Below are positions 36,553 through 57,059 of a stretch of DNA of 64,000 nucleotides, one piece after another. The position numbers and the translations under genes were made by a program. The first letter of the stretch is position 1, and each line of letters starts with the position of its first letter. Location of the stretch: the NCBI GenBank assembly GCA_965209055.1, contig OZ242374.1, forward strand, positions 1,952,001 through 2,016,000, written 5' to 3'. Source of the stretch: Acidobacteriota bacterium. GTDB lineage: Bacteria; Acidobacteriota; UBA6911; RPQK01; JAJDTT01. The notes below the pieces were generated by a model that ran no database searches, had not been told where the DNA came from, and saw only the letters and a program-made list of their open reading frames with translations.

Positions 36553-36772
36553 GGTCGGAGGGGGGACTTTCCTGTCCCCCCGTCTTCTTCTTGGTTGCTA
36601 CGGGATTCGGTGAACCGACGGTGTAGAGGGAGGACCATCGTCCATCCAATCCCCCCAGGTCGGCGACAGGAAAGTCGCCGTTTCTATCGAAAGGAGGGGC
36701 GATTTCCAATCGCCCATTCTTCGTCGCCAAGATTGTCGCACCGGAGTTCGGCGGTTAGGAAACCGCCGCTCC
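36553..36772. repeat. Direct-repeat copy B plus a BIME-like cluster of four REP hairpins in alternating orientation
   Basis: Hairpins at 36557 (+), 36661 (-), 36693 (+) and 36743 (-). Confidence 0.85.
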
Positions 36773-36858
36773 TTTCCTTTTTCTACCGGGCGTCCGCCGG
36801 ACTGGGCCGGTGAGGGAGTTCCTATCGAAAAAATGTAGGGGCCCCCTTGTGGTTGCCC

Positions 36859-37470
36859 TCATTCGGCAAGTTGCAACAGCTTCCGGTGCACCTCCCGGAC
36901 CCGTTTCCGGGTCCGCCCCCGATCCCTGCTGCTGTCGATGACGAAATCGGCGAACCGGACCTTCTCCCCGACGGGCATCTGGGAGTCGATTCTCGCCTGG
37001 GCTTCTTCTCTCGTCAGTCCTCCCCGGCCCAGGAGGCGCTCCAACTGCTGCTCAGGACGGCAGGAGACCACCACCACGCAGTCGTATTTCCGATAGGAGC
37101 CCGTCTCCACCATGAGCGCGGCGTCCACCATGGCGAGGGCCGGCTCCGATGCAGCCTCCCGTTGCAACCGGGCCAACCGGCGGTCCAGTTCCTGGTGTAT
37201 TCGCGGGTGCACGATTCCGTTCAACCGCTGCCGCTGCTGCTCGTCCCCGAAGACGGCGGCGCCCAGCTTGGTCCGATCGATGACGGAGTCTTCTCCCAGG
37301 ATCCCGGTCCCGAAGTGTTCCACGATGTCCCGGTAGGCCGGCTCGCCGGGAAGGATGACCTGGTGGGCCACCTCGTCGGCATCGATGCAGCGGACTCCCA
37401 ACCGGCGGAACTCGTTCAGGGCAAAGCTCTTGCCGCAGGCGATCCCTCCCGTGAGTCCGATCTTGAGCAC
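36859..37470 (-). CDS. coaE: Dephospho-CoA kinase
   Basis: IGLTGGIACGKS, IDAD, IDR..LG..VF, LNGIVHP, RIDSQM; GTG start at 37470. Confidence 0.95.
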   Translation of the reverse strand: MLKIGLTGGIACGKSFALNEFRRLGVRCIDADEVAHQVILPGEPAYRDIVEHFGTGILGEDSVIDRTKLGAAVFGDEQQRQRLNGIVHPRIHQELDRRLARLQREAASEPALAMVDAALMVETGSYRKYDCVVVVSCRPEQQLERLLGRGGLTREEAQARIDSQMPVGEKVRFADFVIDSSRDRGRTRKRVREVHRKLLQLAE

Positions 37471-37510
37471 GGGAGGATGATAGCAGCCTGGAGGACACCA
37501 CTCTTTTTTT

Positions 37511-37538
37511 GCAACCGGACAGACAAAGATGCCGTCTA
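37511..37538 (+). promoter_or_regulatory. Putative ECF-type promoter for tmRNA
   Basis: GCAAC-N17-CGTCTA about 22 nt upstream of the mature tmRNA; same architecture as 23108. Confidence 0.5.
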
Positions 37539-37559
37539 GTACACTACGGACAAGGAAAG

Positions 37560-37916
37560 GGGGGCGACTGGATTCGACGGGAGTAGTTGAGGTCGTAGAT
37601 GCATGCCGAGGTGCCACCACCTCGTAAAACCGTGGCAAAAAACAACAAGTGCCAACGATGAGTTCGCACTCGCCGCGTAATTGACGCGGCCGTTCCGGCC
37701 TTCAGGCCCGCAGGGAGGTTCGGGGCGTCATTTCAGCGGGCTTGCCGGTTCCTTGCCCCTCCCTCGGCGGGGAACCGAGACCTCAATGAGGGACGATCCG
37801 GCTGGCGGCTTTTCCAGTTTCCATGCCAACTGGATCGGATCGGGAAACTGGATAAGCATGTAGATTCTGCCGCCGAAGGCTTCCGGACGTGGGTTCGATT
37901 CCCACCGCCTCCACCA
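37560..37916 (+). ncRNA. ssrA: tmRNA; tag peptide (A)ANDEFALAA at 37651-37680
   Basis: Acceptor stem GGGGGCG/CGCCTCC-ACCA with G3:U, GATTCGAC motif, T-arm GTGGG-TTCGATT-CCCAC, tag ending ALAA-stop. Confidence 0.97.
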
Positions 37917-38081
37917 ATTCCGCATCCAATACCGTCCAAATAATTCCATTTAAGTCTTATTTATCAGGTATTTAGGGTATTTCCTTGCCTAGACCGGTCC
38001 AGTAAGTTCCCTTGACAGCCGGGGGCATCTAGGGGCAATATTGGGGGCAGATCAGAAACATTTTATAGGAGTTGCCCCCAA

Positions 38082-39332
38082 ATGCCCCTTACCGCCACTG
38101 CCATCCGTCATGCGAGACCCTCTGCGAAGACCCGAAAAATGTTCGACGGAGGCGGTCTGTACCTGGAATTATCCCCCCGCGGCAACAAGTGGTGGCGGTT
38201 GAAATACCGCTTCGCAGGCAAGGAGAAACGGATTTCCCTCGGGGTCTATCCCGACGTGTCGCTGAAGGAAGCCCGGACTCGGCGCCATCAAGCCCGCCAA
38301 CTGTTGGCCCGAGAGATCGATCCCAGCGAGCACCGCAAAGCGCAGAGGGCGGCGTGGGTGCAACGGTCCGCCAACAGTTTCGAAGCCGTGGCTCGGGAAT
38401 GGTTCACCAAACATGCTCCAAACTGGGCCACGAGTCATGCCAACCGTGTCCTCAGCCGACTGGAGCGGGACATCATTCCGTGGATGGGCGGACAGCCGAT
38501 TGCCGACATCACCGCCCCTGAGTTGCTGGCGGTGGTGCGCCGGATCGAAAACCGGGGGGCTCTGGAGAGTGCCCACCGAACCCTTCGGATCTGCGGTCAG
38601 GTGTTTCGCTATGCAGTGGCGACGGGACGGGCGAAGCGTGACCCCTCCAGTGACTTGCGAGGCGCATTGCCGCCGGTCAAGAGAACCCACTTCGCCGCCC
38701 TGACCGAACCCAAGCAGGTTGGACCCTTGTTGCGGGTCTTGGACGGCTACCAAGGAACGCTGATCGTGCGCTGCGCCCTGCGCTTTGCCCCTTTGGTCTT
38801 CGTGCGGCCCGGGGAGTTACGCCAAGCCCAGTGGTCGGACATCGACCTGGATGCGGCCGAGTGGCGCTACACTGTCCGCAAGACCGACCTCCCGCATGTC
38901 GTTCCGCTTTCCCGTCAAGCGGTCGAGATCCTGCGCGAACTGCATCCCCTGACCGGGCAGGGACGCTATGTTTACCCCAGTGCCCGCACTCCGAACGGAG
39001 ATCGACCCATGAGCAACAATGCCGTTCTGGCCGCCCTGCGGCGCATGGGGATCGGCAAGGAGGAGATGACGGGCCATGGGTTTCGGCCGATGGCGAGAAC
39101 GATCCTGGATGAGGTGCTGGGCTTTCGTCCCGACTTCATCGAGCACCAGTTGGCCCACGCGGTGCGGGACCCCAACGGGCGGGCTTACAACCGCACGGCC
39201 TATCTGCCGGAACGGCGAAAGATGATGCAGGAGTGGGCCGACTACCTCGATCAACTGAAGGCTGATGTCGTTCCGATGCATCCAAAGCGACTGGATCAAG
39301 ACTCAGGAATCCACCTGAGCGGCGGTCTCTAG
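38082..39332 (+). CDS. P4-type tyrosine integrase with arm-binding domain
   Basis: DGGGLYL, W.LKYRF.GKEK, LGVYP.VSL..AR; catalytic motifs RPGELR, HGFR, LAH, AYNR intact. Confidence 0.96.
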   Translation: MPLTATAIRHARPSAKTRKMFDGGGLYLELSPRGNKWWRLKYRFAGKEKRISLGVYPDVSLKEARTRRHQARQLLAREIDPSEHRKAQRAAWVQRSANSFEAVAREWFTKHAPNWATSHANRVLSRLERDIIPWMGGQPIADITAPELLAVVRRIENRGALESAHRTLRICGQVFRYAVATGRAKRDPSSDLRGALPPVKRTHFAALTEPKQVGPLLRVLDGYQGTLIVRCALRFAPLVFVRPGELRQAQWSDIDLDAAEWRYTVRKTDLPHVVPLSRQAVEILRELHPLTGQGRYVYPSARTPNGDRPMSNNAVLAALRRMGIGKEEMTGHGFRPMARTILDEVLGFRPDFIEHQLAHAVRDPNGRAYNRTAYLPERRKMMQEWADYLDQLKADVVPMHPKRLDQDSGIHLSGGL

Positions 39333-39443
39333 TGTCAGCTCGTTTCCCGTTGAAAAAACCCAAGACATCCAGAGATCGCCTGCAAGGGAAGGGAACCGGC
39401 TTTCAATCTCTTGGGCGGCCTGTGGCGAGCGGCTTTCAAAGAG

Positions 39444-39530
39444 TGCCCGGGGTGGGAGTCGAACCCACATGGAGGGAGAACCTCCACAGGATTTTAAGTC
39501 CCGCGCGTCTGCCGGTTTCGCCACCCGGGC
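39444..39530 (-). tRNA. tRNA-Leu (anticodon TAA), no encoded CCA
   Basis: Cloverleaf: acceptor GCCCGGG/CCCGGGC-A, D-stem GCG/CGC, anticodon stem CGGGA/TCCTG with loop CTTAAAA, long variable arm TGGAGG/CCTCCA, T-arm GTGGG-TTCGACT-CCCAC. Confidence 0.93.
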
Positions 39531-39717
39531 ATCCATCCACCCCTCCACCGGGGACCGGCGGACCGATCATATCCAGGAAGCGCGCCCGGAAGCCATGGCC
39601 GACGAATCCGTCGCCAGCCACCAGGGAAGATCCCGGCAAGGGTTTTCTCCGGTAGTGTATTCTCAACCTACGAGATCCCGGTTCCGGACCCGCACTCCCG
39701 GAAGAGGTGCGATCCTC

Positions 39718-41667
39718 ATGCTCTGGCGCCGCCGAGTCCCACGCCCCGAACCCCGGCCGGTCCTGGAGACCTTCGTCCGGTGGGTCCTCGGCCAGCTCCG
39801 CAACCGCCGGTCCCCCTGGCAGCAACACCAGCCCTCCAAGGACTGGATCTGGCCCGAGCGCTTCCCTTCCCGCCAGCCCTACGACGGGGTCCAGGGACTG
39901 CACCTTCTCTGCCGGGCCGCCGAGCGGGGATACTTGGACCCCCGCTGGGGCACCCGGGCCCGGATCGAAGCCGCCGGGGGCCGGATTTTCAAGGACCAGA
40001 CGGGCGTCCTCCCCCTCCCGGCCGGGGACCTCGATTCCCCGCCGGCACATGACGGCTCCGAAGAGAGCTCGGCCGCTCTTTTCAACGTCGGGCAGGCCGG
40101 GGACCTGCTCCTCCCGCCGCGCGACGGCTGGCCCCCGCCTTCCTGGGAGGTCCACGAACGGGTCGAGCGCCTGCTCGAAGCCAGCGGCGTCGGCCGCCGC
40201 CACGAACCCGGCGACCGGGCCTACTACGACCTGGGAGAGGACCGGATCGTCCTGCCGCCACCCTCCCAATTCGTCGGCGCCCAGCGCTATTACCAGACCC
40301 TTCTTCACGAACTCGGCCACGGGACCGGCCACCCGGACCGGTTGAACCGACCGGGCCTCGCCGCCGCCCTTCGGGACGGGACCGCCTCGACCGCGGCCGC
40401 CCGCGAGGAGCTCCGGGCCGAGATCGCGGCCCTGATGACCGGCGTCCGGATCGGACTTGGCCACCGGCCCCGCAATGGGGAGTTCTACACCAAGCAATGG
40501 ATCCAGCTCCTGGAGTCCGATCCCCGGGAACTGGTCCGCGCCGCTGCCGACGCTTGGCGCATGAGCGAGACCCTGCTCGCCGGCGCCCGCGAGGTGAAGG
40601 AGCGGACCGCCGAGCCGTCCTCCGGCCGGCCCGGCGTCCGGGAGGCGCCGCGAATCCGGATCCGCCGGGTTGCCCCGGCGCTCGTCTCCCCTCCGCTCCC
40701 CGCTCTGGGACCGGCCCGTCCGGCGCCCGGCGCCGGCGTGCTGGAGCGCTTCGGCTGGCACGGACCCGAGGCCGAGTGGATCGCCCTGGTCTGCCGCCAC
40801 GGCGGCTGGTTCACCCGCGCCCAGTTCTGCGCCCATTTGCGCTGCCGGAGAAACCGCGCCCTGCGCTTCGTCCGCCGCCTCGTCGCACGCCGCCACGGCG
40901 TCGAGGAGGACCTCGACGGCCTGCCCACCACCACCCGGACTTGCCGCATCGCCGCCAAGGCCCTGTACCGGGCGCTGGGCCTGGACCGCGTCCCCCACCC
41001 CGGATCTTCCGGCTGGGTCCGGTTCCGCCGTCTGCTCTCGCTCGATTTCGTCCTGGATCACCCCCAGCGGCGGTGGCTTCCCACCGGGCGGGAGAAGGCC
41101 AGGGCGCTGGAGGCGCTGGGCCTTTCCCGCCTGCTGTTCCCCTGCCGGCACTATGCCGGCCATGCCCAGGGACGGAGCCGGTATTTCCCCCGCAAGCTCC
41201 CCCTGGCCCTGGAGGAGGACCGGGCGACCTTCGTATACGTCGATCCCGGCCGGGACACCGACTCGGAACTGCTCTCGTGGGGGGCGGAGCACGCCCGGCT
41301 CTGGACCGCGCTGCGCGCACAAGACCATCCGGTGCACGTGGTCGCGGTGGCCCGCGACGACCTCCGGCGGGAGCGGGCCGGGAAGGTGCTGCGGCGCTGG
41401 TCCGGTCCGGGTCCCGAGGCCGAGTTCGAGCCCCTGTCCCCGGAGGAGGAGCAGGTCATCCGCATCATCGGGCAGGCCGTACGGACCAACGACCGGGAGC
41501 GCCTCGCCCGCTACGGTGGCTTTTTGAACGCCCTGGACCACCGCCAAGCGTTGCTGGAGCGGGCCACCGCCCCCATCCCCCAAGGCCGCATCCGCATCGA
41601 CCGGGGCCGGACCTGGCTCTCGGTCCGGCTTCCAGCGGAAACCGGGGGAGGGTTGTGGAGCGCCTGA
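39718..41667 (+). CDS. Fusion of ArdC-like ssDNA-binding + zincin (HExxH) domains with a C-terminal wHTH/replication-relaxation-like domain
   Basis: PW, Y.G...L.L, Y.DPRW.T, GGRI.K, FNV.Q, AYY...DRI.LP...F, TLLHELGHGTGH..RLNR, EELRAEI; C-terminal half FGW...EAEWIALVC.HGG.F.R.QF...FVYVDPG; ATG 39718 follows GAGG. Confidence 0.72.
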   Translation: MLWRRRVPRPEPRPVLETFVRWVLGQLRNRRSPWQQHQPSKDWIWPERFPSRQPYDGVQGLHLLCRAAERGYLDPRWGTRARIEAAGGRIFKDQTGVLPLPAGDLDSPPAHDGSEESSAALFNVGQAGDLLLPPRDGWPPPSWEVHERVERLLEASGVGRRHEPGDRAYYDLGEDRIVLPPPSQFVGAQRYYQTLLHELGHGTGHPDRLNRPGLAAALRDGTASTAAAREELRAEIAALMTGVRIGLGHRPRNGEFYTKQWIQLLESDPRELVRAAADAWRMSETLLAGAREVKERTAEPSSGRPGVREAPRIRIRRVAPALVSPPLPALGPARPAPGAGVLERFGWHGPEAEWIALVCRHGGWFTRAQFCAHLRCRRNRALRFVRRLVARRHGVEEDLDGLPTTTRTCRIAAKALYRALGLDRVPHPGSSGWVRFRRLLSLDFVLDHPQRRWLPTGREKARALEALGLSRLLFPCRHYAGHAQGRSRYFPRKLPLALEEDRATFVYVDPGRDTDSELLSWGAEHARLWTALRAQDHPVHVVAVARDDLRRERAGKVLRRWSGPGPEAEFEPLSPEEEQVIRIIGQAVRTNDRERLARYGGFLNALDHRQALLERATAPIPQGRIRIDRGRTWLSVRLPAETGGGLWSA

Positions 41668-41689
41668 GGGGCCGCGCGCCCGGTCCCGG

Positions 41690-42070
41690 GTGGACCCTGT
41701 GGACGTCGTGGACCCACGGGCTGCGAAGAGCACGGAAAGTCCCATTGACGGCAATGTGGCGGACCGCTCCCGGGCCGTGTTCCACCTCCGGGGGGCGTGG
41801 CCGGCGAAGTCCCAGGATGTGAAGCACACATGGGGGGGTGTGTTCCACTCTCGGAGCGGCGAGTGTTACAAGCTCCCTTTCCGCCAACTTGTTGAGCCCC
41901 TTCGGGTTGTCCCCGCCCTTCGGGAGGAGGCGCACCCGGACTGGGAGTCCGGGTAGGAGAAGTGAGCGACCCCCCTGTTTTCGTGCCTCGCACGTCACGC
42001 AAGCGCTGCCGGTGTTCCACTCCGTTGGACACCGGCGCGGCATGCGCGGGGGGGGGTCGCTCACTTCTAC
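41690..42070. other. Structured non-coding region, candidate oriT/replication origin
   Basis: GTGGAC x3 (41690-41713), GTGTTCCAC x3 (41777, 41840, 42012), perfect 18-bp inverted repeat 41958-41975/42051-42068 enclosing the hairpin 42008-42036. Confidence 0.55.
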
Positions 42071-42175
42071 ATTGATCCCTGCGGGAAGGCGCAGTCTCCG
42101 ATAACACGTGGATGTTGTCGACTCCTCCTAACGCAGAAAGGGAAATTTCTTTTTCGGTAAAATGTCAGTTGCCAT

Positions 42176-42500
42176 ATGTTGATAATCAAGGTCCGAGAAT
42201 ATGTGGACCCCGAGGGTCGTAGTTCTTACGCGAGATGGTTCGACGGTCTTGACCGCGATCGGCGGCCACGGCGGCGGCGACTCTGGTTCAGGTGGCGTGA
42301 GGCAACCTCTCCAACGCCAAGAGCATCGGAGATGGAGTCGTCGAATGCTGGGGGATTTCGATCCCGACTACCGGATCAATTCGGAAGAGTTGAGCACGAA
42401 CTGGTCGTCCTGCGCGACGGCGGGATGAGAAGCGCCAGCAAAAGGATATCGAAGTTGCTGAAAATCTTTGGCCGGAGTACAAACGGGGAAACAAATGGAG
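42176..42500 (+). pseudogene. RelE/HigB-like addiction-module toxin, frameshifted
   Basis: Fragments in different frames: EYVDPEGRS.YARWFDGLD, GNLSNAKSIGDGV.E, DF.PDYRI, KRQQKDIEVA..LW..YK. Confidence 0.75.
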
Positions 42501-42941: not shown

Positions 42942-45900
42942 ATGAACGCTATTGTTGACAACAGGCAACGTCGTGTCGGCGAGTTTCTCCGGAAACGAAT
43001 CGAGGCGGGGTCGAACCTTTCCATCGTTTCCGCGTATTTCACCATCTACGCCTATGAAGCTCTGCGGGATGTCCTGGAGGCCACCGCCGATACTCGGTTT
43101 CTGTATGGCGAGCCCCGGGGAGTCGGGGCCATGGACCCTGCGGCCGGTCAAGCCAAGGCCTTTCGGCTGACGCAGGACGGCGGTATCGACCTGAAACAGG
43201 TTCTGGCCCAAAAGCCCCTCGCCCGGGCCTGCGCCGCTTGGATCGAAAATCAGGTCAATATCCGAACCGTCAAACAGTCCAATTTCCTGCATGGCAAGCT
43301 CTATCACATCTCGGGAGCGAATGGCGATGACGCCGCCATTGTCGGCAGCTCCAATCTTACTCGGCGTGGACTAGGGTTCGGCACTACTCCTAACATTGAG
43401 CTCAATCTGGAGGTTCGCAACCAAGAAGACCGAAGGCCGCTCATCGATTGGTTCAACCAGTTGTGGAGCGACGAGACTCTCACCCGCGACGCCAAGCCGG
43501 AAGTGCTGGCAGCTCTGGAACGCCTTGGTAGGGTCTACGCACCAGAATTCGTCTACTACAAGACCCTGTTCCATATCTTCGAAGAGGGGCTTGCGGAGCG
43601 CGGAGCGCGTGACGGCCTGCTGCATGATATCCATCTCTATGACACCGAAATCTGGAGAGCTCTATACGAGTTTCAGAAGCACGGAGCCACCAGCGCGGTC
43701 AATCGTTTGTTGCGCCACAACGGCTGCATCGTGGCCGACAGTGTGGGGCTGGGCAAGACTTGGACAGCGCTGGCCGTCATCAAGTTTTTCGAGTTACGCA
43801 ACGAGCGGGTTCTCGTGCTCTGCCCCAAGAAGTTGGAGGACAACTGGGTTCGCTATACGTCCTGGGCGTCCTGGCGCAACAATCCCTTCCAGAAAGATCG
43901 TCTGAACTATACGGTGCTGGCCCACACTGACCTGAGCCGTTACCAAGGTAGGGCGGGAGTGATCGACCTCGCCCAGTTCAACTGGGGCGCATTCGATCTC
44001 GTCGTCATCGACGAATCGCACAACTTCCGCAATGAGGGGGGCGACCGGACGGACGAGTCGGGCAACATCATCCGGCGCAGTCGCTATAACCGATTGTTGG
44101 AGGAAGTCATCAAGGACAGTATCCGGACGAAGGTGCTGATGCTGTCGGCAACACCCGTCAACACCAGTCTGCGCGACCTACGCAATCAGATCTACCTGAT
44201 GACCGAAAAGCAGCAGGATGCCTTCCGGGATTCGCTCGGCATCGGCGACATCCAGACCTTGTTCGGTGTTGCCCAGCGCCAGTTCACGCAGTGGGAGCAG
44301 GAGCGGCGCGCCGGAGGGAAAGCAGATAAGCACAACTTGCTCGAAAAGCTGGGCGCGGATTTTCTGGCGCTGCTGGACGCAGTCACCATTGCCCGATCTC
44401 GCACTCACATCCGCCGCTTCTATCCGGAGGTAAACGAGAGGATCGGCGGTTTTCCGGAACGAGGCAAACCGGAGAACCTGTATCCGCCGACCGACCGGAA
44501 GGGAGTGCTCTCCTATGACGACCTGCACGCTCGGATCGGAAACTTCCGGCTGGCGGTCTACATGCCTTCCCGGTATGTAAAGGACACGTCGGCATTGGAC
44601 GAGGAGAAGGCAAGGCTACGTTTCGATCAGCGCGACCGGGAGCACTGGCTGATCGGAATGATGCGCACCAACCTGCTCAAGCGCCTGGAAAGTTCAGTGC
44701 ATGCCTTCCGGCTGACAATGGCGCGTATGCTGGAAAAGATGGATGAACTGGACCGGCGCATGGAAACGTGGCGAGAAAAAGGGGGAGGTGAAACCATCGA
44801 AGTTCAGCCTGACCAGGATGAAGAAGACGAAGAGTTCACCGTCGGAAAAGGGCATCCATATCGATTCGACGAACTCGATATCGATCAATGGCAGAGCGAC
44901 CTGCGGGAAGACCGGAAAAACTTCCGAGAACTGTATCACCGAACGGAAGCGGTCACGATCGATCGGGACGTCAAGCTAGCCCAACTCCGGACGGTTCTGG
45001 CAGAAAAGATCCAAAATCCGACCACCGACAAGGATGGTCGCCGTAATCGTAAGGCGCTAGTCTTCACCACTTTTGCCGACACCGCCCGCTACCTGTATGA
45101 CGATATCGCCAACTCGCACATCGCGAGGGATCTCGGTGCTCAGGTCGCGCTGGTTACCGGCGGCAATGGAAACAAAAGCACGTTGGAAAGCACGGATTAC
45201 AATGCCATCCTGGAGCAATTCGCCCCCAAAGCACAGCAGAGGAAAGGCACGGGCCAAGAATTAGACATCCTGATCGCGACCGACTGCCTGTCGGAAGGCC
45301 AAAACCTCCAGGACTGCGACTTGGTGGTGAACTACGATATTCACTGGAATCCGGTGCGGCTGATGCAGCGCTTCGGGCGCATCGACCGGCTCGGAAGTCG
45401 GAACTGGCAGGTCGATATGACCAATTTCTGGCCGACAAAAGATCTGGACCGTTATCTGGATCTGAAGAACCGCGTCGAGGCCCGCATGGCCTTGGCGGAC
45501 GCGGCGGCCACGGGTTTCGACGATCTGCTGGACATTGAGTCCCAGTCCGTCGAGGACGGTGAGGGATTGGTCCAAGGGGAATTGGCCTTCCGCGACCAGC
45601 AGTTGAAACGCTTGCGCGACGAGATTCTGGATATCGAGGAGGCGGACGACGGCGTGAGCATGAACGATCTCACGCTCGACGATTTCATCGCCGATCTGCT
45701 GCGCTATATCCAACGGAACCGCGCCGAGCTGGAAGCCGCGCCTTTTGGTATCTATGCCATCGCCCGACTCGACGCCACAACTGCGGTCGAATCAACCCGG
45801 AACACTCGCCCGGCGGGCCGCCCACCCGATCCGATCCGCCCCGGCGCCATTTTCTGCCTGAAGCAGCGCACCGTCTCGGGCGAACGCGCGTCCAACCTCC

Positions 45901-46280
45901 TGCAGCCCTACTACCTCCTTTATGTCCGTGACGACGGGTCCGTGCGTTACACGTTCCGGCAGGCCAGACAGATCCTCACTCTGTTCCAGGCGCTAGCCTC
46001 CGGGCATCCAGAGGCCCGGATGGAGTTGGAAAACGCATTCGATCAGGCCACGGATCATGGCAAACGGATGGAGAAATACGATCGCCTCGTTGACTCTTCC
46101 CTGCGGAACATCGCCGCGACGTTTCGAGCGGCGGAGTTGCGGCAGCTCACCCAATCGCGAGAGGCCAAGCTCACGATCAAACGCAAACGGCCGGTCGCAG
46201 AAGAATTCGAATTGATCACGTGGCTCGTCATCATGGATGGAGAACGAGCAGCCGAAAATGGACCCGATAGCGACTCGTGA
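42942..46280 (+). CDS. PLD-nuclease/SNF2 helicase fusion
   Basis: HGKLY...GSSNLT (HKD-like), ADSVGLGKT, DESHNFR, LSATP, TDCLSEGQNLQD, WNPVRLMQRFGRIDR. Confidence 0.9.
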   Translation: MNAIVDNRQRRVGEFLRKRIEAGSNLSIVSAYFTIYAYEALRDVLEATADTRFLYGEPRGVGAMDPAAGQAKAFRLTQDGGIDLKQVLAQKPLARACAAWIENQVNIRTVKQSNFLHGKLYHISGANGDDAAIVGSSNLTRRGLGFGTTPNIELNLEVRNQEDRRPLIDWFNQLWSDETLTRDAKPEVLAALERLGRVYAPEFVYYKTLFHIFEEGLAERGARDGLLHDIHLYDTEIWRALYEFQKHGATSAVNRLLRHNGCIVADSVGLGKTWTALAVIKFFELRNERVLVLCPKKLEDNWVRYTSWASWRNNPFQKDRLNYTVLAHTDLSRYQGRAGVIDLAQFNWGAFDLVVIDESHNFRNEGGDRTDESGNIIRRSRYNRLLEEVIKDSIRTKVLMLSATPVNTSLRDLRNQIYLMTEKQQDAFRDSLGIGDIQTLFGVAQRQFTQWEQERRAGGKADKHNLLEKLGADFLALLDAVTIARSRTHIRRFYPEVNERIGGFPERGKPENLYPPTDRKGVLSYDDLHARIGNFRLAVYMPSRYVKDTSALDEEKARLRFDQRDREHWLIGMMRTNLLKRLESSVHAFRLTMARMLEKMDELDRRMETWREKGGGETIEVQPDQDEEDEEFTVGKGHPYRFDELDIDQWQSDLREDRKNFRELYHRTEAVTIDRDVKLAQLRTVLAEKIQNPTTDKDGRRNRKALVFTTFADTARYLYDDIANSHIARDLGAQVALVTGGNGNKSTLESTDYNAILEQFAPKAQQRKGTGQELDILIATDCLSEGQNLQDCDLVVNYDIHWNPVRLMQRFGRIDRLGSRNWQVDMTNFWPTKDLDRYLDLKNRVEARMALADAAATGFDDLLDIESQSVEDGEGLVQGELAFRDQQLKRLRDEILDIEEADDGVSMNDLTLDDFIADLLRYIQRNRAELEAAPFGIYAIARLDATTAVESTRNTRPAGRPPDPIRPGAIFCLKQRTVSGERASNLLQPYYLLYVRDDGSVRYTFRQARQILTLFQALASGHPEARMELENAFDQATDHGKRMEKYDRLVDSSLRNIAATFRAAELRQLTQSREAKLTIKRKRPVAEEFELITWLVIMDGERAAENGPDSDS

Positions 46281-49200
46281 AGCTTTGACCGAAGCCCTGT
46301 CCGGTCTCGCCGCCGGGGGACCGTTGCGTGGTGGGGCAATGGCGCTGTTCGAGGTACTTGGATACCGCAGCCGACGGACGCAGGATGTGGGAAGCGTTGA
46401 CGAGTTCCTCGAATGGCTTGAGGCTGAGAAGCCGCTGACCGAACGACAGCGCCGATGGTTCGGTTTCTGGCGCTCAGTCGAGATCATATTTCAGGTCACA
46501 GATGAAGAAATCGACGGTCAAGCGAGTTTGTTCCAGAGCTTCGAGCAAGGACGGAACAAATCGTTCCTGTTCCTGGCTGTGGAGTTGGCCCACGGTTCCT
46601 ACAGCCGCACCTTCTTGGCCGACACGACCCGTGCCGTCAACGGGAGATTGGCGATGCCGGTCATTGTCTTGTTCCGGCACGCTTCGACCCTGACCTTGGC
46701 CGTAATCCATCGCCGCGCCCACAAACGGGACTCGACGCGCGACGTGCTGGAGAAGGTGACGCTGGTCAAGGACATTCGAGTTGATGGAACACACCGGGCA
46801 CATATCGACATTCTCACCGAACTGGCTTTGCCCCGGCTGATCCATGTAGGCGTCCGCAACTTCGACAGGCTTCACGCCGAATGGGAGAAAACGCTCGATA
46901 TCGAGGAACTCAACCGGCGCTTTTACCGCAAACTGTTCGTATGGTTCGATCGCGCGGTGAAACAATGCAGGTTCCCGGACGACGGTGCCGGTCCCGGGAA
47001 TCCGGAACGGCACGTCATCCGGTTGATCACGCGGTGTCTGTTCATCTGGTTCCTGAAGGAAAAAGGTTTAGTGCCCGACGAGTTGTTCGAGGAAAGCTTT
47101 GCCGACTCCAAGCTTAGAAACCATGCTCCTGACCGGACGGATTACTACCGCGCCGTGCTCCAGAACCTGTTCTTCGCCACGCTGAACACCGAGATTGACA
47201 AACGCGTCTTCAGTAGGAAGGCCCACTGCGCCCGGCGCGATTTCAACAAATATCAGTACCACGCCTTGCTGACCGACCCGGAGGGCTTCGTCGCCAAGTT
47301 GAAAACCGTCCCCTTCGTCAATGGCGGTCTGTTCGACTGCCTGGATGATATCGAGAAAAAAAAGGCCGTGGGGCAGCGCGGTGATACCTTTGCCGACTAC
47401 ACGGTCCAGGGCCGGAACCTGCACGTACCGGCGCACCTGTTTTTTCATCCGGATGAAGGACTGTTTCCCCTGTTCCGCCATTACAAGTTCACGGTCGAGG
47501 AAAACACCCCCGTCGATCGGGAAGTCGCCCTCGACCCCGAACTGTTGGGACGAGTCTTCGAGAACCTGCTGGCCGCCTACAATCCGGAGACGCGGGAGAC
47601 GGCGCGCAAGGCCACCGGCTCCTACTACACGCCCCGCCATATCGTGGACTACATGGTCGACGAGGCACTAGTGGCGGCGCTGGCGGAGAACAGCCGACCG
47701 ACGGATGCCGACAGCGAATTCTGGCGAGATCGACTGAATTACCTTCTGGATTATGAGGATGCTTTCGATGATGCTGGAGAATTGTTCGATCCGTACGAAA
47801 CGGAATCCGTGGTCCGGGCCATCGCCGGGCTGCGGGTGCTGGACCCGGCGGCCGGCTCCGGCGCCTTCCCGATGGGAGTGCTCCACAAGCTGACCCTGGC
47901 GCTACGGAGACTCGATCCCGACAATTTGCACTGGGAACGGTTGCAGAAGGAACTGGCCACCGGAAAAGCGGGGGCAGCGTTCGAGGGTAACGAGCACCAG
48001 GAGCGGGATAAGGAGCTGTTGGAGATCAGCCGGATTTTCGAGATCTACCGGGATTCGGACTTCGGGCGCAAGCTCTACCTGATGCAGAATTGCATATACG
48101 GCGTGGACATCCAGCCAGTCGCCTGCCAGATCGCCAAGCTGCGTTTCTTCATCTCCCTTGTGATCGAACAGGATACCAACGAAAACCCGAACGACAATTA
48201 CGGCATCCGACCGCTTCCCAACCTGGAAACCCGGTTAGTGGCGGCGGACACCCTGGTCGGATTGGGCGCCAAGAAACAATCCGTCTTGGGAAGCGATGTC
48301 GTCAAGACGATGGAGGACCAACTCCGCCACGTACGAGAACGCTATTTCAACGCCAGCACAAGACAAACCAAGCTCCGGCTGCGAAATCAGGACAACGCGC
48401 TCCGGGCGGAACTGGCGGGTCTGCTGGAGGAGTTGGATTATGGACATGAGAACGCCGAGGCCGTTGCCAACTGGGACCCCTACGATCAGAACTCGCATGC
48501 CGCCTGGTTCGATCCCGAATGGATGTTCGGCCTATCCGAGGGTTTCGATGTCATGATCGGCAATCCTCCCTACATCCGGGGCGAGAAGATCCCGGACAAG
48601 GCCAGATTGCACCCGGAGTTCGGCGACTTCTACCGGGGGACGGCCGATCTCTACACCTATTTTTTCCGGAAGGGGCTGGATCTCCTGGGAGAAGCCGGAT
48701 TGCTCTGCTTCATCACCTCTAACAAGTTCATGCGTGCGGCCTACGGGACGCCGTTGCGTCGCACATTACTACATGAGGCGCCGCCTCGCCTGATCGTGGA
48801 CTTCGGCGAGCTGCCGGTATTTGAGGCCGGAGTCGACCCGGCAGTCTTCCTGGTAGAGAAAGCCGGTGCGCATAGGAAGCTGAAAGCTGCGGCCATTAAG
48901 ACGAAGGAAGAAATAGGCGACCTGAGAAAAGCGCTCGACCAGCGGGCTTTTTCCATGCCCGTTTCCAGCCTTTCTCCTACCGTCTGGACGTTGGTCCCTC
49001 CCCGCGTCCAGCGCCTGCTGGACAAGATCAAGGCCGGCGGGACACCACTCAGCGATTATCTGAAAGCGGGAATCAATTGGGGTATCAAGACGGGCCTGAA
49101 CAAGGCCTTCGTCATCGACGCGGGTACGCGCGGAGAGTTGATCGCCGAGGATCCAAATAGCGCCGAACTGATCAAGCCCTGGCTGCGCGGCAAGGATGTC

Positions 49201-49860
49201 CGGCGCTGGCGCGTGAATCAGTCAGATTTGTACGTGGTCGCCATTGCCAGCAGCGCCAACACGTCATGGCCTTGGTCTTCCGAAGCAACGGAAGCCGATG
49301 CCGCCAGTATTTTCAAGACGACCTATCCATCCATATACCGCCACCTTTTTCAATTTGAAGACAAACTCCGCAAACGACAAGACAGGGGAAAATTTTTCTG
49401 GGAACTGCGCTCCTGTGCCTATTATCACGCCTTTGAACAACCCAAGATCGTCTATCCGGAGATCGGGCTACGGATGAGGGCGCTGTTCGATCGGAAAGGT
49501 CATCTGACAAACAATAAGTGCTTCATTGTTCCCGGCGGCGGCGCCTACTTGCTTGCCCTCCTAAACTCGAAGCTCCTGGATTTCTATTTTCGCATCTCCA
49601 TGCCTTGCTTAGGCGATCCGTTCAACGGCGGACGCATGGAATTTCGAGGGGTTTTCATGGAGCGTGCACCCGTCGCACCGGCGAAACAGGAAACGAGAGA
49701 GTACCTGTCCCGACTTGCTATGAAAATCCAGACCGCAAAGGAAGCCGACCCCAGCACTGATACGCCATCCCTGGAACGGCAGATTGACGAAATCGTTTAC
49801 GATCTCTACGGCCTCGATGAGAAGGAAATCGCGCTGATCGAAAAGTCCGTGCCGTCATGA
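46258..49860 (+). CDS. Type IIG/Eco57I-like N6-adenine DNA methyltransferase with TaqI_C-like TRD
   Basis: VPF.NGGLF, LLGRVFENLL, GSYYTP, LDPAAGSGAF, YGVDI, IGNPPY, ITSNKF, KIVYPEI; overlaps the helicase stop. Confidence 0.9.
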   Translation: MDPIATREALTEALSGLAAGGPLRGGAMALFEVLGYRSRRTQDVGSVDEFLEWLEAEKPLTERQRRWFGFWRSVEIIFQVTDEEIDGQASLFQSFEQGRNKSFLFLAVELAHGSYSRTFLADTTRAVNGRLAMPVIVLFRHASTLTLAVIHRRAHKRDSTRDVLEKVTLVKDIRVDGTHRAHIDILTELALPRLIHVGVRNFDRLHAEWEKTLDIEELNRRFYRKLFVWFDRAVKQCRFPDDGAGPGNPERHVIRLITRCLFIWFLKEKGLVPDELFEESFADSKLRNHAPDRTDYYRAVLQNLFFATLNTEIDKRVFSRKAHCARRDFNKYQYHALLTDPEGFVAKLKTVPFVNGGLFDCLDDIEKKKAVGQRGDTFADYTVQGRNLHVPAHLFFHPDEGLFPLFRHYKFTVEENTPVDREVALDPELLGRVFENLLAAYNPETRETARKATGSYYTPRHIVDYMVDEALVAALAENSRPTDADSEFWRDRLNYLLDYEDAFDDAGELFDPYETESVVRAIAGLRVLDPAAGSGAFPMGVLHKLTLALRRLDPDNLHWERLQKELATGKAGAAFEGNEHQERDKELLEISRIFEIYRDSDFGRKLYLMQNCIYGVDIQPVACQIAKLRFFISLVIEQDTNENPNDNYGIRPLPNLETRLVAADTLVGLGAKKQSVLGSDVVKTMEDQLRHVRERYFNASTRQTKLRLRNQDNALRAELAGLLEELDYGHENAEAVANWDPYDQNSHAAWFDPEWMFGLSEGFDVMIGNPPYIRGEKIPDKARLHPEFGDFYRGTADLYTYFFRKGLDLLGEAGLLCFITSNKFMRAAYGTPLRRTLLHEAPPRLIVDFGELPVFEAGVDPAVFLVEKAGAHRKLKAAAIKTKEEIGDLRKALDQRAFSMPVSSLSPTVWTLVPPRVQRLLDKIKAGGTPLSDYLKAGINWGIKTGLNKAFVIDAGTRGELIAEDPNSAELIKPWLRGKDVRRWRVNQSDLYVVAIASSANTSWPWSSEATEADAASIFKTTYPSIYRHLFQFEDKLRKRQDRGKFFWELRSCAYYHAFEQPKIVYPEIGLRMRALFDRKGHLTNNKCFIVPGGGAYLLALLNSKLLDFYFRISMPCLGDPFNGGRMEFRGVFMERAPVAPAKQETREYLSRLAMKIQTAKEADPSTDTPSLERQIDEIVYDLYGLDEKEIALIEKSVPS

Positions 49861-52600: not shown

Positions 52601-52740
52601 CAACTCAAGATTTGGGGGCATCTGTGGGGGCAACCCAACACCTATACCGAACACTAGCCTTGTAAATTCAGTCAGTTACAGTAGATATTTGGTTGCCACC
52701 GCCTCCACCAATCTCCCAAGAATAGCAACGCGGGCACCCT

Positions 52741-52803
52741 GGGAGCCGGGACAGTCTTGTCCCGTCTTCGTCCCCGACTGGGAGCCGCGGCTTTCTCGCC
52801 GCC
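52741..52803 (+). repeat. Two degenerate GGAG REP-like hairpins just outside attR
   Basis: GGGAGCCGGGACAGTCTTGTCCCG and GGGAGCCGCGGCTTTCTCGCCGC. Confidence 0.5.
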
Positions 52804-52888
52804 GACCTCCGCCGGAGCAGGGGCCAGTCGCCTTTTCTTCCTTTCGTCAGAGGAGATTCTAGTCTCGACCTACGGCGGCGCTTCCCGG

Positions 52889-53998
52889 TCAGTAGAAAAG
52901 ATTTGCTTGAAAATCGGGCATCCTTCCGGCCGCCGCAAGCTCTCCCCATTCGTCCAACCGGCCGCGATGAGACTTCCAGAACTTTGAGCAGAGTTCGAAG
53001 AACTCAAGAACGATCTCTCGTTCGCCAATCTCCAGGAGCGCTTTGGCGAGCATCATATTCGGCCCGAATGATCGGAGCACGGGTGAGCCTGGTGTCATAC
53101 CAGCCGCAATCAGGCGGGATTTCGCTTCCTCGATTTTGCCCTCGCGTAAGGCAATTCGGCCCATCACCAGGTTGCCTTGGTGGACTCGATCTCCGTAATT
53201 CCGACCAGCATTCGTGTTTTGCAGCATGATTTCTGCAAACTGCCGAGCCTTGTCAAGCTCATCCGCCGCGAATGCCGCTTTCGCGAGATCCTCCAATAGC
53301 AAATCTCGCCCCGATTCCCCTGAGAGTTCGTATGCTAGTTCCAGTTGCTCCAACTGCTCTTCGGAGATTTCTTGGTCCATTGCTCCGGACCCCAGATTGG
53401 CCAACACGCCATAAGTGCGCGCGAGTTCCTTCGGCCATTTCGGATTGGACGGATCGAGAGATCGGGCGTGCTTCAGAAATTTGATCGAAGTCCTGCGGTC
53501 GCCATGCATGAAGAATTGTTCTGCGTTCTCTAGCACCATTGGGTTTTCAGGTTGGCTTTCGACTTGATCCATCCAAGCTTTCTCGGCCTGCAAAAAACCC
53601 TCCGGGTCACGAAAATGATCAATGCCTGCTTCGGGATGTACCAAGACTTCCGATTCCGGCGAGTTTCGGATGAGCCACAGTACGTGTCGGCGTATTGCGG
53701 ACTTGGCCGAGTCCTCGTGGATAGATCGTATCCCGTCGTAGTAGCCGAGAAGCAGCGTTCGTGAAGTCACGTCATTCGGATCGAATGCCAGTTTCTCTTC
53801 GAGTTTCGCAGCCTGTTCCGAGCTAAGCTCGCTGCCGGTTTTCAGGTCGAAGTAGACCCACTTCTCGCCGGATGAACCCTCAGGGTTACCCTTGGGCGGT
53901 TCAGTGGATTGTGGCCCAAGACCCACTGGGCCGAGAACAATGGCCATAATGGTGACCAGGGACACAATCAGGAATGCCAGGAACACTTCCTTTCGCAT
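52889..53998 (-). CDS. Membrane-anchored/secreted TPR-like protein
   Basis: N-terminal hydrophobic helix; helical repeats; C-terminal H.GNLV.GRIAL.EG...FGPNM.LAK.LL..GER..VL..F.LC.KFW. Confidence 0.75.
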   Translation of the reverse strand: MRKEVFLAFLIVSLVTIMAIVLGPVGLGPQSTEPPKGNPEGSSGEKWVYFDLKTGSELSSEQAAKLEEKLAFDPNDVTSRTLLLGYYDGIRSIHEDSAKSAIRRHVLWLIRNSPESEVLVHPEAGIDHFRDPEGFLQAEKAWMDQVESQPENPMVLENAEQFFMHGDRRTSIKFLKHARSLDPSNPKWPKELARTYGVLANLGSGAMDQEISEEQLEQLELAYELSGESGRDLLLEDLAKAAFAADELDKARQFAEIMLQNTNAGRNYGDRVHQGNLVMGRIALREGKIEEAKSRLIAAGMTPGSPVLRSFGPNMMLAKALLEIGEREIVLEFFELCSKFWKSHRGRLDEWGELAAAGRMPDFQANLFY

Positions 53999-54116
53999 TT
54001 TCTCTCCTTTCCTACTCTGCACCCTATTCTGGGTCTCTATCCTAAGCCAGAGACATCTCCCTCATAATGGGCTGCATGAACCAGGCCGCTGGCGACTGGG
54101 CCGGCTCCGGCGTCAA

Positions 54117-54842
54117 TCAGTAATAAAGATTGCCGCGGAAATTCGGGATTTTTCCCTCTTTGACCGAAACGGCCCATTCGTCCATCCGGTCATCGCGCCA
54201 GAACTTTGAACAGAGCCGGAAGTACTCGAGTACGACCTTTCGCTCACCCTTATCCAAGAGCTCTTTGGCGAGCATCATATTGGGGCCGAATGTATCGAGG
54301 TTGAATGCGCCGGGAACGTCGGCGGCCGCAAGCAGGCGCGACATTGCTTCGTGGATGTCTCCCTCGCGCAAAGCGATACGACCCAGGACGAGGTTGCCGT
54401 GGTGGATACGGTTTGCGTAAAACGTTCCTGACGGGGAATAAGGAGCACCGGGACGAGCCTGAAGCGCGAGTTCCGCATGATGCCGAGCCTTGTCGAACTG
54501 ACCCGCTTCGAATGCCCCCTTTGCCAGACTCACCGAGAGTCTGGCTCTGGCCAATTCACCCCCAACTTCATACGCCTCTTCGAATTGCTCCAGTGCCTTC
54601 TCAATGAGGAGCTTGGCAACCTGGGGAGATTTTCCGCGAGCCGAGAACAGATACGCGTTCCCTAGCTTCTTCAGCAATAGCGTCTTTCCGCTCGAATCCG
54701 CTTCGGAGAGGAGACTGCTACTCCTCGGACTCTTTGCATGGACACCTTGCGCGCCCATCGGGAAATGCAGGACGAAGAGGGTAATCGCAGCAAGAATCGA
54801 AAGACAGGAGCGGAGTGTGATGGGATTTAATGAGTTAGGCAT
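54117..54842 (-). CDS. Shorter paralogue of the adjacent TPR-like protein
   Basis: Signal peptide; C-terminal ~150 aa clearly homologous to 52889-53998. Confidence 0.75.
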   Translation of the reverse strand: MPNSLNPITLRSCLSILAAITLFVLHFPMGAQGVHAKSPRSSSLLSEADSSGKTLLLKKLGNAYLFSARGKSPQVAKLLIEKALEQFEEAYEVGGELARARLSVSLAKGAFEAGQFDKARHHAELALQARPGAPYSPSGTFYANRIHHGNLVLGRIALREGDIHEAMSRLLAAADVPGAFNLDTFGPNMMLAKELLDKGERKVVLEYFRLCSKFWRDDRMDEWAVSVKEGKIPNFRGNLYY

Positions 54843-55316
54843 AATATTCAAGATACGCCGGACGCCCGAAATGATCAACGGGTCGGACGTTTCCGGGGGC
54901 GCATGGACAAGGGGAGAAAGGGACAGTCACTTTTTCTTCTCGTCGTTATACGTTGCTATGCTCGACGACACCTGTTGGCTCCCCACCCACCTCGGGTCTG
55001 ATCGGCGAGGCTTGCGGCATCACGAGCGATGCACTCCTGATTAGCGAAGGCCCCAGGGCAACATCCGGGTGCTCTTCGTCGGGCTCTACTACAGGGGTCA
55101 GCGCCACTCGGATCTGGAGCGTGAGTACGTTGAAATCAACGATCCAATCGACGAACGCATGCCGCGCATCCGGCGACTGTCTGACAGTCTACTGGTGCAC
55201 GTCACCAACCTGACATGGCCGAGGAGTTGAAGACTTCGCCGGCCTACAACGAGGCGCTACTTCGAGCCAAGCTCCAAGATCCGTTCCTTGATCTTCCGGA
55301 CCTGATCGCCTCTTGA

Positions 55317-56990
55317 CTACGCACGGGTCTTGAAAAACAAACCAACTGGAGATCTTCGAAGGTCTTGGTACTGTTTGATCAGCGCTCGAATCTTCGCTGG
55401 AAATTCCTTGAGCTTAGGAACATCAAGAAACTGGTTCCCAGCTATCGCCGCCAAGCCGTAGAGAGGCATCCCGGTGGCTGCAGCCGCGACTTCAACTCCA
55501 CCCACCATTAGCCACGACCCCACGTCTTTGAAGCCAAATTGCAGCAGCGCGTCGGTCACCCGCTGTATCTGTTGCTGATGGTCAGCCATCATCTTGTCCA
55601 GGTTTGCCACGACCAACTCTGTGGTTTGAGCGAAATCCTCGGGCCCAGCCATGGATAGCCCTGCGACACCGTCACTCAGTGTCTTCCGTATCTCCCGAAC
55701 AGCATGTCGCCTGCGCAGCTGGATCAGGGCCGCCGTCGGAACTCGGCCGAGCCAAGATACACGTCCGTTGTTCACCGCCGCCTGAAGGGCTCGTACGACG
55801 AGAAGGTCGGAAAGATGGGAATCCCCATCGGAAAAGCGTGTTGTGTCGTACTCCAATTTCCACTGGAAGTAACGCCACGAAGTGGGCGCTTGAATCAGTG
55901 GAACGCCACGTAGTTGTTGAGTCCGTAGCAGGAGATCATTGGCCTGTGCCATGCGGCCGACAGCCTGCGAGAGCGCGACCCGTCCAGGTTTGTCGCCGAC
56001 CAGCGTCTGGAGTTCCGGCTGCTCAGCTAGGACGCGCTTGATCTGGTTTTGAAGCGGACCCTGCCACTCAACATCAAAAAGAAGCCGATTCGGCCTGTCC
56101 AGAGCCCGCACAACGGCATCTACGTCTCGAAGACTGTCCGCGAAGTCTTTGACCTCGTCCAGATTCCTGAATGACCTCCCGAAAAGGACTCCGGTGTGCG
56201 TGACAGCATCGGCCTTACTAACTGCTGCGATGACATTTGGTTCGTTAGGATCAATGCTGCTTCGGTCAGGTGCGACTACAATGATCGGTGGGTCAACGTC
56301 CGCTATAGCGAGTTCTCGATACTTCAGTATATTCAGGGCGTGCTTGACGACGTAATGGACCCGTCGCTCAGGTGACCAGAATTCGAAGAGAGCTGCCGAG
56401 CGAAGAAACGGGTCTGGCAGCACGATCGTGTCCACGTACAGGCCACACGTGGAAGCTATATTCTGGCTCGGGGATGGAAAAAGGTCGCCACCGAATACGG
56501 CTTTGAGTTGCTGTGCATCTTCCAAGTGAACGTGAGTTGCCTCCCCAAGATTTGTCCAAAACTCTGACAGTACCTCCAAAAACCTCGGGATCACGCTATC
56601 CATTTCGGCAACGAACGTCGCATCGGCTGCAGCTGTCCTACCCGCCCGCTCAGGGTCCAATCCGATGCGCGACATGCGCTTGAAGATGTGTCCGAAGTTG
56701 TCATGCAGCCACTCGAAATACTCGCGTTGTATTTCCGCCAACGAAACTTGTCGCTTGATGTCGGATCGTACTTTCGCCGTGGACACTGCCAAAGCCATTG
56801 CACGTACACGGCTATCGACTGTATCGAGATCAATCTCGCCGTCGGATCCATATCGGACGGCTTCAAGGCTTTTCCTTATGCTCTCCGCCAAGTGCGGCGC
56901 GAACACAACCCGCCCCGCTTGAAGTTCGTCTCTCAGGACGATGAGCCGTTTGCGCAATCTGCCCTGCTGTTCTTCAGTTTGGCTCGTCAT
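55317..56990 (-). CDS. Hypothetical protein; N-terminal Avs1c-like segment and C-terminal hydrophobic hairpin
   Basis: 557-aa ORF in lower-GC DNA; motif SL.AVR..SDG.IDL.TVD..VR..A; LY.DTIVLPDP. Confidence 0.65.
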   Translation of the reverse strand: MTSQTEEQQGRLRKRLIVLRDELQAGRVVFAPHLAESIRKSLEAVRYGSDGEIDLDTVDSRVRAMALAVSTAKVRSDIKRQVSLAEIQREYFEWLHDNFGHIFKRMSRIGLDPERAGRTAAADATFVAEMDSVIPRFLEVLSEFWTNLGEATHVHLEDAQQLKAVFGGDLFPSPSQNIASTCGLYVDTIVLPDPFLRSAALFEFWSPERRVHYVVKHALNILKYRELAIADVDPPIIVVAPDRSSIDPNEPNVIAAVSKADAVTHTGVLFGRSFRNLDEVKDFADSLRDVDAVVRALDRPNRLLFDVEWQGPLQNQIKRVLAEQPELQTLVGDKPGRVALSQAVGRMAQANDLLLRTQQLRGVPLIQAPTSWRYFQWKLEYDTTRFSDGDSHLSDLLVVRALQAAVNNGRVSWLGRVPTAALIQLRRRHAVREIRKTLSDGVAGLSMAGPEDFAQTTELVVANLDKMMADHQQQIQRVTDALLQFGFKDVGSWLMVGGVEVAAAATGMPLYGLAAIAGNQFLDVPKLKEFPAKIRALIKQYQDLRRSPVGLFFKTRA

Positions 56991-57059
56991 CAGACACGTG
57001 CCTGTCGTGCCGGGCCCGCTTGTTCGGATGCGCCGGGCGTCGGCACTGCTTCAGCGGCC

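Follow-up and report, generated by a model that had tools for sequence, protein, structure and literature searches.

An accessory tRNA-Leu(UAA) gene in the backbone of a small tmRNA-targeting island

The 64,000-nucleotide stretch of an Acidobacteriota genome analyzed here (the window) contains a tRNA-Leu(UAA) gene which is a genuine accessory gene on a mobile island: attachment-site repeats flank it, and a separate core copy is conserved in its place among relatives of the same genus. The initial annotation had proposed that the island supplies or gates the translation of its own integrase and defence genes by means of this tRNA, or replaces a tRNA cut by anticodon nucleases. It correctly described a tRNA that decodes the rarest codon and is distinct from the host's own copy; its proposal of a dedicated gate, or of a role against nucleases, goes too far. 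Our preferred explanation, in which we have about even confidence, is that of a captured, probably functional accessory tRNA, which would serve general codon compensation for the mobilome and not as a switch of specific genes.

The island and its tRNA gene

The 14.8-kb island has the 3' end of the tmRNA gene (ssrA) as its insertion site and lies between two direct repeats of this end (Table 1). Its tyrosine integrase contains an arm-binding domain, the two repeats match at 22 of 25 positions, and across the cargo (42-53 kb) the GC content drops to 0.52-0.60, compared to about 0.63 before it; it is thus a tmRNA-targeting island with a P4-type integrase, and the repeats together with the drop in GC content place the tRNA-Leu(UAA) gene inside it. 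The tRNA and integrase genes are convergent and 110 nt apart, and on the opposite strand the ORF of an ArdC-like protein starts 188 nt upstream of the tRNA gene. The N-terminal half of this 649-aa protein consists of ArdcN and MPTase-PolyVal zincin domains, and the C-terminal half belongs to a family of about 310 aa with a winged-helix start. Small unassigned ORFs located after the methyltransferase gene complete the island cargo. A consensus of the loose end behind 37916, used as a test for the empty attachment site, had no match in the genome, which is uninformative with respect to excision.

Table 1. Position and assignment of features in the window
Feature	Position	Strand	Basis
tmRNA gene (ssrA), chromosomal integration target	37560..37916	+	ARAGORN, tag ANDEFALAA; Rfam RF00023, 187.5 bits
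attL, tmRNA 3' end, left direct repeat	37894..37918	+	Direct-repeat search
Backbone common to all three genome copies, ~90% identity	38026..42090	+	blastn, 100-nt identity profile
P4-type tyrosine integrase, 416 aa, TTA at codons 30 and 246	38082..39332	+	Pfam Arm-DNA-bind_3, Phage_int_M, Phage_integrase
Long hairpin followed by a run of six U, terminator-like, oriented for the tRNA	39353..39415	-	MFE fold of 39333-39530 (-)
tRNA-Leu(UAA), type II, long variable arm, discriminator A73, CCA unencoded	39444..39530	-	ARAGORN, Rfam, alignment
TATGAT, candidate -10 box	39566..39571	-	Sequence; comparison with other tRNA promoters of the genome
ArdC-like fusion gene, 649 aa	39718..41667	+	Pfam; PHROG anti-restriction match
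Cargo, HKD(PLD)+Snf2 helicase	42942..46280	+	Pfam; PADLOC C3a139 'HKD+Snf2', E=7e-114
Cargo, Eco57I/type IIG-like methyltransferase	46237..49860	+	Pfam; PADLOC REase_MTase_IIG, E=5e-111
attR, degenerate copy of tmRNA 3' end, 22/25 match	52688..52712	+	Direct-repeat search

ARAGORN detected two RNA genes in the whole window, the tmRNA and the tRNA-Leu(taa), and both were confirmed by Rfam. The tRNA was called at 39443-39530 on the minus strand with the anticodon taa at position 35, and the Rfam match (RF00005, 39444-39530, minus strand) covers the full model (1-71) with 55.4 bits compared to a gathering score of 29. In an alignment of 15 tRNA-Leu(UAA) genes, all 26 consensus pairs are formed in the window tRNA, eight of them with compensatory double changes. 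The gene encodes a 7-nt anticodon loop (CTTAAAA), a 5-bp variable stem, and an A directly 3' of the acceptor stem; work on E. coli identified a 7-nt loop with UAA, a long variable arm and the discriminator A73 as identity elements for LeuRS. The cloverleaf which the initial annotation had placed inside the attachment sites is thereby confirmed. The terminator-like hairpin with its run of six U, located 3' of the tRNA, is kept in all three copies of the backbone; it was missed by a simple terminator scan because its loop is bigger than the limit of the scan.

The proposed -10 box TATGAT is also present, but its geometry is atypical. It lies 35 nt upstream of the mature 5' end of the tRNA, compared to 8-22 nt for the ends of the good sigma-70-like promoters (TTGnnn-17/18-TAnnnT) found at 15 tRNA genes of this genome, and it achieves 8 of 12 promoter matches, with a best -35 partner of 3/6. 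One of the three backbone copies has TACGAT at this position, and a general promoter scan of 37400-42400 found none. Transcription of the island tRNA-Leu(UAA) is plausible, and the TATGAT box would predict its start near 39559. Among the sequencing runs searched, four runs of one sample contain 48-83% of the sampled words of the region, as fragmented contigs of DNA type (118.8 kb for the longest), and five RNA runs contain 5%. Across the genome, many tRNA genes have textbook sigma-70-like promoters (TTGnnn-17/18-TATAAT-like), and the core tRNA-Leu(taa) gene has no recognizable sigma-70-like promoter.

Several other features of the island and its surroundings were noted. Three GGGGGCA motifs are located just upstream of the integrase gene (38021-38079) and two at 56-74 nt to the left of attR (52614-52632); these clusters include five of the 12 motifs in the window, where the overall count is not enriched, and they may be arm-type binding sites of the integrase. 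A block, TTGACA...GGGGGCAATATTGGGGGCAG, is kept upstream of all five integrase paralogues. A third repeat similar to the tmRNA 3' end (three mismatches) was found at genome position 2016887, 887 nt past the end of the window, which suggests that another island follows in tandem on the right side of attR. The region from 52712 to 64000 contains TPR-protein paralogues at 52889-54022 and 54117-54878, and, at 62793-64000, the beginning of an IS-like element that contains an ORF of 559 aa; three other genome copies of this element are 99.9-100% identical. A repeat of 81-130 nt at 36690-36830 is found in more than 70 places of the genome, some of which form tandem arrays around 3.249 Mb and 3.686 Mb.

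Copies, alleles and relatives

The genome consists of one contig of 6,077,182 bp with a GC content of 62.8%. Six of its 68 ARAGORN calls are tRNA-Leu(taa) genes, and each of the six also exceeds the Rfam cut-off, which 58 matches in the genome do. One of them, at genome position 1381642, is the core copy, and the other five are accessory copies on mobile DNA, so that the island gene is an extra copy, as the initial annotation had suspected, and not a sole gene conserved in relatives. When 16-kb loci around the tRNA-Leu(taa) genes of relatives were compared by tblastx with three contexts (20-30 kb) of the host genome, all six loci of the same genus (G001-G005 and G007) were syntenic with the core copy, with collinear flanks showing 76-92% amino-acid identity over kilobases, and none of the six was collinear with the copies at 2104898 or 3018716. 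The locus of another genus (G009) had only the tRNA in common with the host contexts.

The accessory contexts are the three backbones, the copy at 2104898, which has repeats around it and an Abi_alpha gene after it, and the copy at 3018716 beside a Replicase-family gene, whose Rfam score is weaker (42.8 bits). The flanks of the 2104898 copy are repeats, which defeat synteny at the DNA level. This copy is 93% identical to the island allele, and its Abi_alpha (abortive infection) gene lies 127 nt downstream, the pair being located at 2104898-2105924. The genes neighbouring the tRNA-Leu copies include members of the Pfam families PSCyt1, PSD1 and DUF1501. A small cluster elsewhere in the genome, Gly(GCC)-Ser(AGA)-Ser(AGA) at 2737867-2738174, may be another set of mobile-element tRNAs because the anticodon AGA is unusual for bacterial tRNA-Ser.

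A comparison of window positions 36000-64000 with the genome (blastn) showed that 37911-42090 recurs at 2,526,398-2,522,184 (90.1% identity over 4,224 nt) and that 38026-42090 recurs at 475,821-479,905 (89.4%). A common backbone of about 4.2 kb therefore spans the P4-type integrase, the tRNA-Leu and the ArdC-like fusion gene. The second copy abuts tRNA-Ile(GAT); in the third, the integrase gene is frameshifted and only a degenerate remnant of a tRNA-Ile 3' end is found. Two further integrases belonging to this family, with 84-91% amino-acid identity, are located at tRNA-Ala(TGC) and tRNA-Phe, there without a tRNA-Leu. The 3' part of the backbone, 41103-42090, has roughly eight additional occurrences in the genome, with about 90-93% identity, each near a member of a second P4-type integrase family that is 31% identical to the island integrase, and this part is therefore a module common to two island families.

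Among the backbone copies the tRNA shows two substitutions, one in the D-loop and one changing a G-U to an A-U pair, and both keep the structure. Between the window tRNA and the copy at 2524782 there is no difference over 88 nt, and the flanks of the two agree at 95-96%. Compared to the core allele (blastn), the island allele shows 85.7% identity, with about 12 differences, among them the compensatory change of A7-U66 to G7-C66, and the core allele itself is 100% identical in two relatives (G003 and G006). Outside the host genome, the best match of the island allele is 88.6% identical (G013), and a second, accessory tRNA-Leu(taa) gene of G007 has the T-loop and part of the 3' flank in common with it. 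A 27-nt word from the T-arm and acceptor stem of the island allele matched at least 118 contigs, mainly of Acidobacteriota and Actinomycetota; 70 of the 77 tRNAs extractable from these matches are tRNA-Leu(taa). As whole tRNAs they are 84-85% identical to the island allele and thus no closer than the genes of host relatives, and therefore point to no particular donor.

Separate genes 5-10 kb apart encode the N- and C-terminal halves of this 649-aa protein in other genomes of the order, for example G010, G012, G021 and G048, and at 1.828/1.832 Mb of the host genome. The ArdC-like gene of the backbone is therefore a deletion fusion, and since it joins in frame genes that are otherwise kilobases apart, the island backbone appears to have arisen by deletion from a larger ICE-like element. 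No relative of the 649-aa protein was found in a search of genome contigs, and only six distant relatives of its C-terminal half (27-33% identity) were found in metagenome contigs; one metagenomic protein of 492 aa is a similar fusion. The C-terminal half on its own (window 40738-41667) belongs to a large family of about 313 aa with 698 matches at E<=1e-5, usually adjoining island integrases. It has no Pfam, PHROG or PADLOC match. Its structure model (pLDDT 85.6) starts with a MarR/HlyU-like winged helix, with matches over about 80 residues; a Foldseek search against the PDB yielded no match at E<=0.001, and the rest of the fold has no confident match.

Relatives of the backbone show that the tRNA is not an obligate component of this element family. 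The ssrA island of G001 consists of the tmRNA gene, an integrase that is 93% identical to that of the window and a C-half gene, without a tRNA, and the host islands at the tRNA-Ala and tRNA-Phe sites lack it as well. An island of G005 located beside tRNA-Ala(CGC) contains a decayed tRNA-Leu (L053, 7815-7883) 51 nt upstream of a C-half homologue, in the same divergent orientation; its anticodon loop is mutated and its 5' acceptor strand is lost. At 28 loci in other genomes with homologues of the ArdC half or the C-half, no tRNA-Leu was present within 1.5 kb. Isolated copies of nucleotides 30-88 of tRNA-Leu(UAA), the usual footprint of elements integrating in the anticodon loop, are scattered in many genomes of the order. 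Taken together, these islands, remnants and loci suggest that the tRNA came into the element lineage via attachment-site recombination and is not essential to it. The tallies of the partial copies, the synteny of the 2104898 copy and the arrangement of the half genes include one unpublished genome, G016, on which no specific claim depends.

TTA codons in island and genome

Codon usage was analyzed for 4,239 genes covering 82% of the genome, called by a simple codon-likelihood method that under-calls genes of atypical composition. In these genes, TTA is the rarest sense codon, as expected from the initial annotation, with 877 of 1,657,414 codons (0.53 per 1000; the next rarest, CTA, occurs 2,376 times), and it is present in 682 of the 4,239 genes. 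Its rate drops steeply as the GC content of the gene rises (Poisson regression), from 2.1 per 1000 at a GC content of 0.55 to 0.45 at 0.63.

All ten TTA codons listed for the island by the initial annotation are in frame in the named ORFs, and an eleventh is located at 42583. The eleven ORFs of the island thus contain 11 TTA in 4,515 codons, compared to 2.39 expected at the genome mean, which is an enrichment of about 4.6-fold over this mean; compared to the 5.95 expected for genes of matched GC content, the excess is weak (P=0.04, uncorrected and derived from a crude gene caller), and the enrichment is not specific to the island but mostly a matter of base composition. The integrase is the only island gene that deviates clearly (two TTA with 0.19 expected, P=0.016); the values for the helicase (two with 1.23 expected) and the methyltransferase (four with 1.50 expected) are not significant. 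The 29 genes called to the left of the island (window 1-37560) contain three TTA in 9,776 codons (0.31 per 1000).

Ranked by TTA density within +/-10 kb, with ORFs added in uncalled regions, the five accessory tRNA copies are found at the 82nd to 94th percentile of the genome and the core copy at the 41st. For 20 other P4-type integrases, which have no tRNA-Leu nearby, the median rank of the surroundings is the 90th percentile. TTA richness is therefore general to mobile DNA in this genome and not specific to regions with the tRNA.

Within the integrase family, codon 30 is TTA in five of six members (ATA in the copy at the tRNA-Phe site), and codon 246 is TTA in all three integrases next to the tRNA and TTG in all three without it, including that of the G001 ssrA island. 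Members of the family contain two to three TTA per approximately 416 codons, with 0.19-0.24 expected, and eighteen other, more distant P4-type integrases of the genome contain no TTA. The TTA pattern of the integrases next to the tRNA is suggestive; it comprises a few synonymous sites in related genes.

Possible roles and known systems

According to our preferred explanation, the tRNA-Leu(UAA) is a fixed part of the 4.2-kb backbone of small islands targeting tRNA and tmRNA genes; its allele does not stem from the resident core gene, and it is present three times because the backbone has spread. Capture during recombination at attachment sites is its probable origin because tRNA-Leu(UAA) is a frequent integration target in the order. 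The accessory copies would provide a bigger supply of the tRNA decoding the rarest codon of the genome, a codon that is several-fold commoner in acquired DNA of lower GC content and about ten-fold commoner in the integrase family. Against compensation stands the equal TTA richness of islands without the tRNA described above, and the correlation at integrase codon 246 concerns a single synonymous site in related genes. The gene numbers are likewise not those that demand alone would predict: six tRNA-Leu(UAA) genes face approximately 900-1300 TTA codons, compared to one tRNA-Leu(CAG) gene for 83,828 CTG codons.

The main rival, which we consider unlikely but deserving of serious weight, is that the gene is a neutral hitch-hiker, the relic of a former tRNA-Leu(UAA) attachment site, which would be of no benefit, perhaps still encode a working tRNA and persist because the backbone is young. 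The tRNA-Leu(UAA) 3' fragments common in the order, the decayed gene upstream of the homologous C-half gene in G005, and the related islands without the tRNA all fit this explanation, as does the finding that tRNA-bearing islands are no richer in TTA than others. Moreover, the tRNA is barely better conserved than its 3' flank (97.7-100% versus 94-97%). However, all three copies are intact and differ solely by changes that keep the structure, and the gene is followed by its own terminator-like hairpin. In addition, it is specifically a tRNA-Leu(UAA), decoding the rarest codon, that is found in four separate mobile contexts (the backbone, 2104898, 3018716 and the second copy of G007).

Alternatively, the island tRNA might set the level of the integrase and thereby couple recombination to its own transcription, a self-supplied licence following a logic similar to that of bldA. 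The unexpected TTA codons of this integrase family, their absence from the other 18 P4-type integrases of the genome, TTA30 in five of six members and TTA246 only in the three next to the tRNA would agree with such a role, and so would the lack of a recognizable sigma-70-like promoter at the core gene. It is nevertheless improbable: the core gene and the other accessory copies are always in the cell, integrases that retain TTA30 work, or have at any rate been maintained, where no tRNA adjoins them (in G001 and at the tRNA-Ala site), and because the integrases are related, the TTA pattern amounts to approximately one evolutionary observation. To the broader version, in which tRNAs supplied by the mobilome would license the recombinase and TTA-rich cargo across roughly 25 islands, a bldA-like control invented by mobile DNA, we likewise attach little probability.

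Very improbable is a role as anti-defence cargo, in which extra copies would replenish tRNA-Leu(UAA) cut by nucleases and form a module with the ArdC-like anti-restriction gene. The tRNA is indeed divergently adjacent to this gene, an Abi_alpha gene follows another accessory copy, and there is precedent in phage tRNAs described as evading or neutralizing tRNA-targeting defences (PMC10264068, PMC11464382, PMC11555353). Yet the anticodon loop CTTAAAA is identical in all six host copies and in 17 tRNA-Leu(UAA) genes from relatives, which rules out a nuclease-escape variant and deprives the idea of the sequence signature of nuclease evasion. A search with Pfam AAA_13 (the PrrC/RloC-type ATPase) yielded one partial match only (genome 4962792-4963370), and an integrated island is spared the acute pressure of an infecting phage; the initial suggestion of a replacement for tRNAs cut by anticodon nucleases is not supported, and replenishment keeps a small probability. 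That the tRNA serves as a portable extra attachment site for elements targeting tRNA-Leu(UAA) is extremely improbable, since for all the frequency of this target in the order, the host genome contains full-length copies only (blastn), none of the six genes having a partial duplicate of its 3' end next to it, and in the three backbones the integrase of the backbone itself already lies on the 3' side of the tRNA.

The gene thus represents a clean natural case for two rival ideas, namely that tRNAs of mobile elements earn their place through codon compensation or that they are debris of attachment sites, and the approximately 12 differences between the island and the core allele make an experiment straightforward. 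If the tRNA proved to be inert, this would be a caution against inferring function for island tRNAs. In a literature search at the level of titles and abstracts, we found no precedent for an island-borne tRNA-Leu(UAA).

In Streptomyces, the tRNA-Leu(UAA) encoded by bldA acts as a translational switch. The similarity to the situation described here consists of the same anticodon, a high-GC genome and TTA as the rarest codon. However, bldA is a single chromosomal gene, and TTA is confined there to few genes of regulation and secondary metabolism. With six tRNA-Leu(UAA) genes and TTA in 682 of 4,239 genes, both of these defining features are absent here; the island tRNA is therefore not a switch of this type, and gating of translation in the sense of bldA is not supported. 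Like the phage tRNAs acting against defence systems, the island gene is an extra tRNA on a mobile element, here next to an anti-restriction-type gene; unlike them, it has the anticodon loop of the host gene, and its element is integrated and not lytic. As an element, the island resembles CP4-57 of E. coli, an ssrA-targeting island with a P4-type integrase, in the duplication of the tmRNA 3' end as attachment-site repeats and in the integrase gene located immediately downstream in the same orientation. It differs from CP4-57 by the tRNA gene and the ArdC-like fusion, and its sister copies target tRNA-Ile, tRNA-Ala and tRNA-Phe.

It is well known that phages and large plasmids carry accessory tRNAs, and ICEAfe1 of Acidithiobacillus has a tRNA cluster. 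The tRNAs of plasmids are reported in a preprint to match the codon usage of plasmid genes (10.64898/2026.09.01.748738), and long tRNA arrays on mobile elements have been described (PMC8421152). With tRNAs of mobile elements and codon compensation already established, the island tRNA belongs to a known kind, and most likely it is an ordinary type of cargo rather than a dedicated switch. Like the tRNAs of plasmids, phages and ICEs, it is located on a mobile element and redundant with a chromosomal gene; a higher use of the cognate codon than in the host, as in the elements bearing those tRNAs, applies to the island relative to the genome mean and weakly at matched GC content. In contrast to them, it stands alone on a very small island (15 kb) with a P4-type integrase, as a fixed part of the backbone instead of a member of an array, there are five accessory copies for a single codon, the rarest one, and the cargo is no richer in TTA than that of islands without the tRNA. 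It is this fixed place in a tiny integrase backbone, together with the five-fold amplification, that is unusual for the tRNA-Leu(UAA) described here.
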